Shown: positions 35,168-40,537 of the stretch, one piece after another | Position numbering within the stretch: position 1 is the first letter of the stretch | How the letters are laid out: every line of letters starts with the position of its first letter | Program-made: the position numbers and the translations under genes | Origin: Escherichia coli | Lineage (GTDB): Bacteria > Pseudomonadota > Gammaproteobacteria > Enterobacterales > Enterobacteriaceae | Assembly (NCBI RefSeq): GCF_051903065.1 | Contig: NZ_CP178438.1 | Direction: 5' to 3' (one strand) | Length of the DNA: 64,000 nucleotides | The notes under the pieces: generated by a model | Database searches by the model: none | The model's input: the letters and a program-made list of their open reading frames with translations, nothing else | What the model was told of the DNA's origin: nothing

Positions 35168-35626
35168 ATGTATCCCCTGCGTGTCGATCTGCGCGCTGGC
35201 ACCTTCGCCGCAGATCCACTCTTCCAGACGCTCGGTAAGCGCTTCATCCGTCAGCTTCTCGCGCCCACGTAACGCGCACTCCCAGACAATCAATACGCGC
35301 CAGCCGAGTTCCTGCAAGCGACTGATATCGCGGCGATCGCGCTCAACATTTTTACCTATCTTCTCCAGCCAGAACTCGGTTCGAGTCGCAGGCACTTTAA
35401 ACAGATAGCAGTGATGATGGTGCCAGAAGCAGCCGTGGGTAAATATCACGCAACAATATTCATCAACGACAAAATCCGGGCGTCCGGGCAGACTGGCGTC
35501 CTGAACGCGAAACGCCAGGCCCTGCCCGGTTAACAGACTGGCGAGGCGCTTCTCTATCGCCGTATTACGCGTGGCAATCGCGCGCATATTTTTGCTGCGA
35601 GTGGCCTTATCGTGAACGTCGGCCAT
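35156..35626 (-). CDS. vsr: Very-short-patch repair endonuclease
   Basis: 156-aa product starting [28 protein letters not shown]; its 5' end overlaps the dcm 3' end by 20 nt in another frame. Confidence 0.85.
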
Positions 35627-37025
35627 GTTGTGCCTCTTGCTGACGCAACGCCACCGCCTGTTTGATTTTTGGCTCAAGCAGTTTTGCCACCGCGGCAAAG
35701 ACCGGCACGACCACCGAGTTACCGAGCTGGCGATAGGCCTGAGTGTCCGAAACCGGAATGCGGAATTTCGCTTCTCCCGGCGCTTCAAAACCCATTAAGC
35801 GCGCACATTCCCGAGGCGTTAACCGACGTGGACGATGTTGCTGATTCAGCGGATCGTCAAAGTCTTTCTCACCCGTGGCCATATCCCAGCCGCGATCGAT
35901 TAAAATTTCCGCGCCATCTTTGTAATAACGCGCAGACAGCGTACGCGTGACGCTTTGCGGATTGTTCGGATAAACCATTCCATAACCGAAGCCGTTACCG
36001 CGCGCCTGATGTTTTTTCGCATAACGATAGAGGTACTTCCACAGCACCGGCGTCAGGATATATTTCGCCTCGACCATCGGGTCCAGCAGCTGCGCCAGCG
36101 TCACTCGCTGTGCAGGGAAACATTCGCTGATATCACGCAGAGTAAAATCGGCTTTCAGATTAAGATCGCGACGAAAACCCACCAGCACGATGCGTTCACG
36201 GTGCTGCGGCAGGAAATGTTTACCATCGATGATTTTCGGATCGTCCGGCCCGTTATCTTCTGCATCAGCCACGTCATAGCCCAGTTCGTCCAGCGTCTGC
36301 ATGATGATGCGGAACGTTTTTCCTTTATCGTGACTTTTCAGGTTTTTGACGTTTTCGAGCACAAACATCGCCGGACGACGCGCGTCGATAATACGCACCA
36401 CATCAAAGAACAGCGTGCCCTGGGTATCGCAGGCAAAACCGTGCGCCCGCCCGAGCGAGTTCTTTTTCGATACGCCAGCCAGCGAAAATGGCTGACAAGG
36501 GAAACCGGCCAGTAAAACATCGTGTTCAGGAATGTGTTGACGAATATGTTCCGCCGCCGCCTCATCACTCACGCCTTCTTTATGGCTGAGGGTGATGTCG
36601 CGGATATCTTCATTAAAATGATGCGTCGCCGGGTCGCAATAATGATTGGCTTTATAAGTGCGTACCGCATGTTTGTTCCATTCGCTGGTAAACACGCACT
36701 GTCCGCCAATCGATTCAAAACCGCGACGGATGCCGCCAATTCCGGCAAATAGATCGATAAAGCGAAACGCATAATGCGGATGATGTGCCGGTGGTTTGGG
36801 TAACAACGTTTGCAGATGGGCGAACTCTTTCTCACTTAAACGGTGCCATGCCGAGTCATTCGCCAGCGCACGTTTTAAAATTGCCGCGCTCCAGTGATTC
36901 TCACCCACACCATTAAGCTGCGCCACCAGCGTTTTAACATCATAAATTTGCAGCAGTTTCTCCAGCATTGCCTGTGCGGCATTCCCGGTGCTGTATGAAT
37001 CGGTTACTGATATATTTTCCTGCAT
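35607..37025 (-). CDS. dcm: DNA cytosine-5 methyltransferase (CCWGG)
   Basis: 472-aa ORF with C5-MTase motifs (FAGIGG motif I; PCQPFS catalytic motif IV; ENVKN). Confidence 0.9.
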
Positions 37026-37091: not shown

Positions 37092-37787
37092 TCAGCCCGC
37101 GGGTGAAAACGCATCTATCACCTTGTGATCGACACCTTCATTCTCCCCCGCCAGTTCGGCACTGAGCTTCGCCATAAACTCGACTAAAAATTGCGCGTTG
37201 TGCTGCGCCAGCTGCTTGCCTCTTGCGGTTTGCATGGTTTGCGGTAGCTTCAGCAACTTAGTCTGGAAATGATCCAGCGCGTAGCGTTTATCATCAAGCG
37301 GGCGATGCTGTGCGAACGGATCTTCACCATCAAACAGCGCCATGCCCAATGCCCCTGAAACGGCAAACACGCGCGCCAGGCCAATCGCCCCCAGGGCTTC
37401 CAGCCGATCCGCATCCTGGACGATTTTAGCTTCCGTTGTTAAGGGGGCGATTTGCGCGCTGAAACTGTGAGCGGCAATGGCATGACAAACGGCCTCGATT
37501 TTCTCCGCCGGAAATTGCTCGAACTCTTCACGGAGCAGGCGACGCGTCTCTTCTGCCGCCAGGATTGAAGAACGCTGCCGTTGCGGATGATTTTTCGCCA
37601 GACTCACAATATCGTGGAAATAACAGGCGGTTAAAATCACCAGCATATCGACGTCATCATCTGCCGCCAGCTTCTGTGCCGTAGCCCAGACGCGGCGAAA
37701 ATGACACACGTCATGGGCCGCGTCCTGGTGCTGATGATGGTTTTTCAACCAGTTTTCGAACTGTGCCTGCCAGTGTTGTAAGTCCAT
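37092..37787 (-). CDS. yedJ: HD-domain phosphohydrolase
   Basis: 231-aa ORF with HD motif (H...HD). Confidence 0.8.
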
Positions 37788-37826
37788 ACGCGCTCCGTTG
37801 CCAAAGAGTCGCCACCTTAGCAGTTT

Positions 37827-38210
37827 TTATTCATAGCGTCTGCTACGTGCGGGACGAGGTCGGGTGTACCAGGCAATGCTGCCTAACAATGCCCCGACCA
37901 GAGCCATAAATAAAAATCCGACCAGTGCCCCTAACCACTTTCCCGCGGTAGAGCCTAAATCGCTTTCAAATCCCGACACGGGGGCATCGGGGATCCGGCT
38001 CATCACCCAGATGTAACGCGCCATTGCCCAGACGAAATAGCCACACCATGTATAGAAAGCCCACAAAGCCAGTTTGCCGCCAGGGCTGCGAGAGAGTCTC
38101 TCTTCCATCTTTGTCGAACCGTATTCCATTTTGAGATAACCCGGAAAATTCAGACTTAGTACTATTATGTGATAAAAGTCACATTTTTCCACATTGAATG
38201 AGCCAGTCAA
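37827..38210 (-). CDS. yedR: Inner membrane protein YedR
   Basis: ORF with two transmembrane segments; the reference length is about 121 aa, so the start is uncertain. Confidence 0.65.
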   Translation of the reverse strand: MTGSFNVEKCDFYHIIVLSLNFPGYLKMEYGSTKMEERLSRSPGGKLALWAFYTWCGYFVWAMARYIWVMSRIPDAPVSGFESDLGSTAGKWLGALVGFLFMALVGALLGSIAWYTRPRPARSRRYE

Positions 38211-38349
38211 GACTCAATCATTTTTTGAACAAATAGATAAATTTTGCGCAACGGCAGTGAATACAGGAAAAATCGTTTTGAGCGATTTTATTTATCTTTG
38301 ATATCGGCTTTATTAATTCATTTAATCAATATATTAGCACTGAATACAA

Positions 38350-38447
38350 TTATACCTTTTTATTTTTCTGTGTCATGATGCCTCCGTTATTAGCCTTTTA
38401 TCGTCTTGTTTATATTTTTTGGGCCGGCATGATGCCGGCTTTTTTTA
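38350..38447 (+). ncRNA. rseX: Candidate small RNA (RseX-like) ending at a strong intrinsic terminator
   Basis: Hairpin GCCGGC-ATGAT-GCCGGC followed by TTTTTTTAT at 38423..38448 in the yedR-yedS intergenic region; the 5' end is not determined. RseX is recalled to map to this intergenic region in K-12. Confidence 0.3.
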
Positions 38448-38757
38448 TGCCTTCATTAATGTGCGCGTGATCACACCAGCCGTTTAGCGCAACAATCATT
38501 GATACCCCCTATCTTTCCGCTCAACTCATAACATATTGATATGCATTTATAATCTTCATGAATGCTTATATTTAGAATTCATAATTCTGAATTATATTAA
38601 ATAGATTGGAAACATTTTGAAATCTTTTAAATATATTTGTTACATGTAATCCTTAAAATAAAATGAACTTCATAGAATAGTATCCAAATGTGCTTTTTTT
38701 TGGATAACGGCACTTATTGATATATTCATGAAGATTATAATCACAAGGGAATACATA

Positions 38758-39945
38758 ATGAAAAGAAAAGTTCTGGCAATGCTGGTCCCGGCGTTATTAG
38801 TTGCTGGCGCAGCAAATGCGGCTGAAATTTATAATAAAGATGGCAATAAACTGGATTTGTACGGAAAAGTAGCGGGCCTGCACTACTTCTCTGATGATGC
38901 TGGCAGCGATGGCGACATGTCATATGCCCGTATCGGTTTCAAAGGTGAAACTCAGATCGCTGACCAATTCACTGGTTATGGTCAGTGGGAATTTAACATT
39001 GGCGCAAACGGTCCTGAAAGCGACAAGGGTAATACCGCAACGCGTCTGGCATTTGCAGGTTTCGGCTTTGGTCAGAATGGTACTTTCGACTATGGTCGTA
39101 ACTACGGTGTCGTATATGACGTAGAAGCATGGACCGATATGCTGCCAGAATTTGGTGGCGATACCTATGCTGGCGCTGACAACTTCATGAACGGTCGTGC
39201 TAATGGTGTTGCAACCTACCGTAACAATGGCTTCTTTGGTCAGGTCGATGGCCTGAACTTTGCTCTGCAATATCAGGGTAATAATGAAGATGATGGATTA
39301 TTCGGTCAGGAAGGTTCTGGTAACGGTAATGGCCGTAAGTTAGCTAAAGAGAACGGCGACGGCTTCGGTATGTCCACTTCCTATGACTTCGACTTCGGTT
39401 TAAGTCTGGGTGCTGCATATTCTAACTCTGACCGTACCGACAATCAGGTTCACAAAGGTACTCATAACACTCGTTATGGAGATCGCTTCGATGCAACTGC
39501 TGGCGGTGAAACAGCAGAAGCATGGACCGTTGGTGCTAAATACGACGCTAATAACGTTTACTTAGCAGCTATGTATGCTGAAACCCGTAACATGACTGGT
39601 TACGGTGATGCTGATGCCATCGCTAACAAAACCCAAAACTTTGAAGTTGTTGCTCAGTATCAGTTCGACTTTGGTCTGCGCCCGTCCATCGCTTACCTGC
39701 AATCTAAAGGTAAGGATTTAGGCGGTGTAAATAGTGATAACTTCGACAGCCAGGGTAATCATCACTACACCAACAAAGATCTGGTTAAATATGTTGATAT
39801 TGGTATGACCTACTACTTCAACAAAAACATGTCCACCTATGTTGATTACAAAATCAACCTGCTGGACAACGACGACGACTTCTACAAAGAAAACGGCATC
39901 GCTACCGATGATATCGTTGCTGTGGGCTTAGTCTACCAGTTCTAA
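38758..39945 (+). CDS. yedS: General-diffusion outer-membrane porin (OmpC/OmpF/PhoE family), intact
   Basis: Signal peptide [21 protein letters not shown] followed by [16 protein letters not shown] and C-terminal ...VGLVYQF; RBS AAGGGA upstream of the ATG at 38758. Confidence 0.8.
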
Positions 39946-39987
39946 TCAGCCAACTCGCTGCGGCGTGTTACTGTAAAACTGAACACT

Positions 39988-40026
39988 AGCCTGAGTTCGT
40001 CCCTCATCGAACTCAGGCTTTTTTAT
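39988..40026 (+). terminator. Rho-independent terminator of the porin gene
   Basis: 12-bp perfect stem AGCCTGAGTTCG / CGAACTCAGGCT followed by TTTTTTA. Confidence 0.65.
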
Positions 40027-40537
40027 TGACATTTCATCTCCCTCTGCGGCACACGCAATTGCCAAAGCATATCGATACACCACCTTACCCTGCCCCTCCT
40101 GGCACAATATCTTCTACCAGCTACTCTTCCAGCCAACACCCCAAATACATTTCTTTATGAATTAATCCGCAACAAACACACTTCCCATATAGAAATATTT
40201 GCAAAAATAGTGCATGAAAAAAGCTTTTTCTCTGCCAATCCTGGATATAAATATTCATCAGCACCACAATATTCCACAGCACTAAATCTCTCCCCGCCAC
40301 CCCGTACCTCTGATAATGGTCTAAAATCATTGAGGCCACTTGCGACGACGTTGCTCAATAAGGAAAATTTGGCGTGAATAATATTCAACACCAGTGCAGC
40401 ATCATCATTACATACTTACACCCGCCGACTACCGCTTTCGATATATTGACTCAATTTTCCAGCCTGGTTAAAAATAGCGACCAGCTCAGTCGCAAATATA
40501 GTGACTACCCTAACTAAGCAACAATAAGGAATACACT

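Follow-up and report, generated by a model that had tools for sequence, protein, structure and literature searches.

The porin gene ompS1 of Salmonella enterica is quiescent; it has an OmpR-dependent promoter P1 and an upstream negative region, and is subject to silencing by H-NS and StpA and to antagonism by LeuO. Models for the looping of DNA between distant regulatory sites are the distal OmpR site F4 of ompF as well as lac, gal and ara. The Escherichia coli gene yedS has been given as "yedS (ompS1)" and equated with the Salmonella gene (PMC2731931), and two copies of the OmpR motif obtained by ChIP, TGTWACAW, have been reported upstream of ompS1 (PMC3586657). Similarly to ompS1, yedS has an OmpR motif upstream of a weak promoter and a long AT-rich (30% GC) spacer, and, comparable to the H-NS silencing of ompS1, the rseX gene next to yedS is reported to be H-NS-repressed (PMC8313858).

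We analysed the upstream region of yedS in a stretch of 64,000 nucleotides of E. coli DNA (the window), where a perfect 17-bp inverted repeat brackets the porin promoter. No description of a 17-bp inverted repeat in this position was found in the literature searched, including the accessible ompS1 literature. As an element the repeat adds nothing new: it is a real sequence coincidence or a relic quasi-palindrome and not a functional pair, and the two arms most likely represent a lineage-restricted coincidence rather than a regulatory or a mobile element. The negative outcome is useful, since it resolves a striking promoter-flanking repeat into an invariant leader segment and a freely drifting spacer segment. 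It also documents an intact yedS/ompS1 control region, composed of rseX, a variable distal spacer, OmpR boxes, a -10 element, a covarying hairpin and an invariant leader, and this layout may help the study of the quiescent porin YedS, which is linked to carbapenem susceptibility.

Organisation of the rseX-yedS region

The gene order in the window is dcm (35607-37025, minus strand), yedJ, yedR/drpB, rseX, yedS and hchA, with the rseX promoter region facing the divergent yedR/drpB gene. The left border of the variable spacer is formed by rseX, 100 bp upstream of the left arm of the repeat, and this arm sits between the rseX terminator and the OmpR boxes. The features of the region, with their positions in the window, are the following:

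38357-38446, plus strand: rseX sRNA gene (Rfam RF01401, 96.7 bits, E = 2.4e-13; rseX is annotated at the same place in K-12)
38421-38441, plus strand: intrinsic terminator of rseX (terminator scan)
38547-38563, plus strand: left arm of the repeat, TTATAATCTTCATGAAT, at -211 to -195 from the yedS ATG, in the distal upstream spacer
38607-38649, plus strand: OmpR-box-like region, GAAACATTTTGAAATCTTTT followed by TTTGTTACATGT
38673-38683, plus strand: candidate -10 elements TAGAAT and TAGTAT of an OmpR-type core promoter, placed by analogy with ompC and ompF
38690-38713, plus strand: hairpin at the 5' end of the leader, with GUGC, a U-rich loop and GCAC (single-sequence fold and compensatory changes)
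38724-38740, plus strand: right arm of the repeat, ATTCATGAAGATTATAA, at -34 to -18 from the ATG, in the leader, downstream of the 5' hairpin and upstream of the Shine-Dalgarno sequence
38758-39945, plus strand: porin gene yedS (ompS1-like), intact, 395 aa; homologues carry Pfam PF00267

The first-pass annotation had described a perfect 17-bp inverted pair just upstream of a porin start, with the arms about 160 bp apart and on either side of the porin promoter, and this description is borne out. Both arms were found at these positions, 17 nt separate the end of the right arm from the yedS ATG (38758), the OmpR-box and -10 region falls between the arms, and the porin gene had been correctly identified as yedS. 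The gene is intact in this strain, in contrast to the pseudogene in K-12.

Within the OmpR-box-like region, TGTTACAT at 38638-38645 (inside TTTGTTACATGT) fits the OmpR motif TGTWACAW, and the whole block is kept across Escherichia, Citrobacter and Enterobacter. The -10 block GAACTTCATAGAATAGTATCC shows 0-2 mismatches in 20 loci from the three genera. The stem of the leader hairpin carries compensatory changes (GUAG/CUAC and GUAC/GUAC in Citrobacter, GUGA/UCAC in Enterobacter) and its poly-T loop contains 7 to 9 T, depending on the E. coli strain. The covariation of the stem indicates that this element is RNA, which, together with the analogy to the related porin promoters, suggests a transcription start at about 38686-38691. 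With such a start the right arm would lie inside the yedS mRNA leader, and about 135 bp would separate the left arm from the start downstream of it. The traits tested for an OmpR-type porin promoter with a structured leader were all present, namely the OmpR motif, the conserved -10 element, the covarying hairpin and the intact open reading frame.

Several further candidates in the region were discarded. A 405-aa form of the porin, given by the mechanical ORF list and by some database entries, starts from the in-frame ATG at 38728-38730 in the right arm; this start is without a ribosome-binding site, and RefSeq places the start at 38758. A 31-codon hydrophobic ORF overlapping rseX (38375-38470, plus strand) contains stop codons in other Escherichia and is therefore no conserved gene. 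Rfam scans of 37500-40600 and 38300-38800 found rseX as the only family, and a sub-threshold match to STnc430 (25 bits against a gathering score of 47) proved to be the rseX terminator read on the other strand. The promoter scan returned sites no more numerous than in shuffles. The left arm holds a lone TATAAT (38548-38553) and the palindrome TTCATGAA; as a promoter this TATAAT was rejected, being without a usable -35. Matches of the arms to a Fur box or a marbox, judged by eye, were weak (about 12/19 for Fur, in the right arm only) and were dropped. RNAduplex pairing of RseX (from the window), MicF and RybB with the yedS leader was no better than that of shuffled sRNAs and does not account for the invariance of the right arm.

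The inverted repeat and its chance expectation

The arm TTATAATCTTCATGAAT at 38547-38563 on the plus strand has its exact reverse complement, ATTCATGAAGATTATAA, at 38724-38740; 160 nt separate the two arms, and the segment including the arms measures 194 bp. Each arm is made up of two small palindromes, TTATAA and TTCATGAA. The pair is the sole perfect inverted repeat of at least 14 bp in the window with arms at most 400 bp apart, and no further copies of the 17-mer were found in the 64 kb, allowing for up to two mismatches. Perfect pairing stops at 17 bp. The repeat finder extended it to 38 nt with 74% complementarity; the part past 17 bp pairs at 11/21 positions, barely above the expectation for AT-rich DNA.

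None of 3000 dinucleotide shuffles of the 547-bp intergenic region (30% GC) gave a repeat of 17 bp, the maximum being 15, and the common 18/19 form exceeded all 400 shuffles run for it. Among 200 block-shuffled 64-kb windows, one gave a repeat of at least 17 bp, which corresponds to about 0.005 per window and about 0.4 per E. coli genome, a figure that rests on this single event. The repeat is locally unusual, yet it is not extraordinary for a genome-wide scan, and since it exceeds every local shuffle, a chance origin needs this genome-wide multiple-testing argument. Chance in AT-rich DNA, which the first-pass annotation had offered as one option, survives in this qualified form. The repeat is longer than in the local shuffles and its 16/17 or 18/19 form is widespread in E. 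coli. Rather than pure noise, it is better called a lineage-restricted quasi-palindrome, which E. coli shares with its closest relatives only.

Conservation of the two arms within and between species

The locus region is present in 4879 of 5426 complete E. coli genomes, once per genome, and only four genomes are at least 99% identical to the window over it. A 40-mer containing the right arm (38712-38751) is identical in 4839/4868 E. coli genomes, and the window's left-arm 40-mer was found exactly in three genomes. Variable sites were counted along the region in nine E. coli sequences, i.e. the window and an unbiased spread sample:

rseX: 4/90
Distal spacer, left part: 15/100
Left arm: 5/17, the highest density in the region
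Distal spacer, right part: 8/42
Core promoter: 7/84
Leader: 2/34
Right arm: 0/17
Remainder to the ATG: 0/17

The alignment of the spread sample accordingly is nearly invariant from the OmpR boxes through the ATG and variable in the left arm. This asymmetric conservation, with a right-arm 40-mer kept in almost all genomes against a left arm variable at almost a third of its positions, argues against a functional pairing of the arms. As a SNP-rich marker for host tracking, the yedS-yedR intergenic region has been in use before (PMC11267920), which fits the picture of a drifting spacer.

The left arm occurs in several alleles. The allele TTATAATTTTCATGAAT, carried by K-12, O157 and most strains, has T at 38554 and pairs with the right arm at 16/17 positions, or at 18/19 if the next two bases are included; a probe for this K-12 T allele matched 2621 genomes, 2325 of them exactly. 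TTATAA-TTTCATGAAT is a one-base deletion variant, and CCATAATATTCGTGAAT pairs at 13/17; the strains of this 13/17 type, FDAARGOS_1264 and 1105, carry A at 38554. C at 38554 is the single base that perfects the repeat. Probes requiring it match 27 and 63 genomes in two overlapping sets; C is present in about 63-90 of the 5426 genomes, and the perfect repeat is an allele of roughly 1-2% among E. coli genomes. At least five different haplotypes flank the C allele; in two of them, those of strains OZ197100 and EC50, the perfect repeat extends over 19 bp. The allele may have come to lie on several haplotypes by recombination or by recurrent, possibly templated, mutation. The base equivalent to 38554 is T in Escherichia sp. 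MOD1-EC7003 and E. whittamii and C in E. albertii. Because the first two carry T, C is probably derived in E. coli, although the C of E. albertii makes the direction uncertain.

The distance between anchors placed beside the arms is 164-167 bp in 14 E. coli sequences, the differences coming from the length of the poly-T tract and from the one-nucleotide deletion within the left arm. Four polymorphic sites (38543, 38554, 38564 and 38565) fall in 23 bp around the left arm, and at 38543 and 38564 all four allele combinations occur among the 14 E. coli sequences, which indicates that recombination or recurrent mutation has acted over a very short distance. A template switch on the right arm would produce just the T-to-C change of 38554. 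In E. coli 2015C-3121, an IS1 lies in the first OmpR-box-like sequence (equivalent to about 38619-38627 of the window) with a 9-bp target duplication, GAAATCTTT; it puts about 0.8 kb between an intact yedS and the distal spacer with the left arm, and represents a natural deletion-like variant.

A scan with one genome per species identified orthologs of the locus in four further Escherichia lineages, in about a dozen Citrobacter and in two Enterobacter. In blastn comparisons of the Escherichia relatives with the window, rseX is 90-92% identical, the distal spacer 67-83% and the proximal promoter with the leader 96-98%. The left arm keeps 10/17 bases in Escherichia sp. E1V33, 14/17 in E. whittamii and 12/17 in E. 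albertii, which is no better than the segment flanking it (66-70% identical in these three). All 17 bases of the right arm are kept in the three Escherichia lineages scored besides E. coli; the arm is invariant in the four aligned and 16/17 in C. amalonaticus. The bracket was also scored independently of position, by comparing any distal 17-mer of each ortholog with the leader of the same locus. The best distal-leader complementarity was:

E. coli: 15-17 of 17
Escherichia sp. MOD1-EC7003: 15 of 17
E. whittamii: 14 of 17
E. albertii: 13 of 17, at the level of shuffles
Escherichia sp. E1V33: 13 of 17, at the level of shuffles
Nine Citrobacter: 11-13 of 17, at the level of shuffles
Two Enterobacter: 12-13 of 17, at the level of shuffles

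The promoter architecture is old and conserved, whereas the bracket of arms is not. From Salmonella, no ompS1 ortholog came out of the genome scan, which returned Escherichia, Citrobacter and other genera, and the only Salmonella locus in it (L056, S. arizonae, 65%) is without the promoter block. The best 120 matches of the YedS protein are all from Escherichia or Shigella.

We consider it probable that the arms do not work as a pair and that, in this strain, two unrelated pieces of the DNA between rseX and yedS are reverse complements of each other by happenstance. The right arm would be constant as part of the invariant leader of the yedS porin mRNA, and the left arm would be ordinary AT-rich distal spacer, drifting at the rate of its flanks. 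Given the analogy with Salmonella ompS1 and the H-NS control of the neighbouring rseX, this spacer is probably generic silencer-bound upstream DNA of the H-NS/StpA kind, with a role for H-NS and LeuO. The 16/17 (18/19) quasi-palindrome of most E. coli would then have been perfected in a minority lineage by the T-to-C change at 38554. Its origin would lie either in chance or in an old local inverted duplication, and not in selection. Against this explanation stand the length of the repeat, greater than in all 3000 local shuffles (and, for the 18/19 form, than in 400), and the occurrence of the C allele on at least five haplotypes, a possible sign of recurrent mutation or of selection in favour of the perfect form. 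In addition, a species-specific regulator site may overlap the left arm. For the functional readings of the pair, the first-pass annotation had itself named lack of conservation between strains as the refuting result, and this is what was found.

Other explanations of the arm pair

A structural origin, in which the arms are relics either of the termini of a decayed miniature element or of an ancient, since drifted inverted duplication of the leader segment, seems rather unlikely. It agrees with 17-bp inverted repeats of terminal style about 160 bp apart, with their weak 38-nt extension (74% complementary) and with a complementarity that decays with phylogenetic distance, as for a neutral relic. 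ERIC/IRU and IS-derived MITEs likewise are short intergenic segments, here of 194 bp, with terminal-style inverted repeats; in contrast to them, the segment here is single-copy, always present and filled with a conserved host promoter. One copy per genome (median 1, maximum 2 places) was found in the 4879 E. coli genomes, in near as well as in distant BLAST searches, and the one two-place record examined, 2015C-3121, is the locus split by IS1. Among the locus-bearing genomes, 4876/4879 keep at least 80% of the 194-bp segment, i.e. there is no presence/absence polymorphism. A target-site duplication was not found at the arms (GCAT precedes the left arm and TCAC follows the right arm), and a 12-nt direct repeat precedes both arms, so the arrangement is not a target-site duplication. 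The interior, with OmpR boxes, -10 element and hairpin, is kept in three genera and is older than the repeat. Terminal inverted repeats are therefore the MITE trait that was found, and multiple copies, target-site duplication, presence/absence variation and an interior unrelated to the host were not. The decayed miniature element suggested in the first-pass annotation is refuted by copy number, by the missing target-site duplication and by the conserved promoter interior. An inverted duplication is opposed by the pairing of only 11/21 positions beyond the 17 bp.

Paired operators are improbable. In this explanation, also put forward in the first-pass annotation, a dimeric or tetrameric regulator would bind both arms, loop out about 177 bp with the OmpR boxes and the core promoter, and repress yedS. 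The arms do bracket the core promoter, their centres are 177 bp apart, close to 17 helical turns, each contains the palindrome TTCATGAA, and the repeat is longer than in local shuffles; upstream negative regulation of Salmonella ompS1 was reportedly described by Oropeza in 1999. At ompF (distal site F4), lac (O1/O3) and gal (OE/OI), too, two sites flank the promoter at a loop-compatible distance, but there both sites are conserved and match the motif of their regulator. In yedS no stretch of the spacer is less conserved than the left arm, and sister species and genera in which the promoter is kept show chance-level complementarity. The 13/17-type E. coli (which have TTCGTGAA), E. albertii and E1V33 have lost the palindrome TTCATGAA, as have most Citrobacter at the right-hand site. 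The spacing varies by up to 3 bp, at odds with fixed helical phasing, and the arms are without the OmpR motif TGTWACAW, which lies between them at 38638-38645. Moreover, IS1 separates the arms in the natural strain 2015C-3121. With one arm unconstrained, a polymorphic spacing and arms unlike the OmpR motif, looping operators are unsupported.

It appears very improbable that the perfect 17-19-bp form is made recurrently by template switching in minority strains, with a strain-specific effect on yedS. The common allele resembles quasi-palindromes corrected by template switching in that it pairs at 18/19 and the derived T-to-C change exactly perfects it, on several haplotypes. However, in the classic hairpin hotspots the arms are far closer than the 160 bp found here, and the haplotypes are accounted for just as well by recombination among old alleles. 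If this explanation held, the effect would come from a duplex in rseX read-through transcripts or from altered H-NS bridging across the promoter, and porin expression and carbapenem permeability would differ between otherwise similar strains. An influence of the perfect allele on yedS expression would amount to a strain-level regulatory polymorphism, which nothing here supports.

Very unlikely, too, is a long-range RNA helix, in which transcripts from upstream (rseX read-through or a P2-like promoter) would pair the arms as a 17-19-bp duplex beside the ribosome-binding site and thereby, with just as little probability, block translation or create an RNase III site: although the isolated arm duplex reaches -19.1 kcal/mol (-16.5 kcal/mol with the U-G wobble of K-12), the C-to-T and A-to-G differences of other strains would be wobble-compatible and Salmonella ompS1 is reported to have an upstream promoter, the minimum-energy and centroid folds of 38530-38775 leave the arms unpaired with the right arm pairing locally, the inferred main start lies between the arms, a strong rseX terminator stands upstream, pairs are broken in the 13/17-type E. 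coli (3/17), in E. albertii (5) and in E1V33 (7), and the right arm never varies, hence there is no covariation.

A 12-nt direct repeat, ACATATTGATAT (38531-38542) and ACTTATTGATAT (38712-38723), directly precedes each arm. Its right-hand copy falls within the 8-nt stretch TTATTGAT, which is present in Escherichia leaders and missing from those of Citrobacter and Enterobacter, and which looks like a small tandem duplication of ATATTCAT. The sequence TTGATATATT resembles TCGATATATT, the high-affinity motif of H-NS. As to the porin itself, the YedS protein of this strain shares 94-97% identity with its counterparts in E. albertii, E. whittamii and E1V33 but only 87-88% with most E. coli YedS clusters, whereas the distal upstream DNA is E. 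coli-like, unlike the affinities of the protein. This difference suggests that yedS is here a mosaic or recombinant porin allele.
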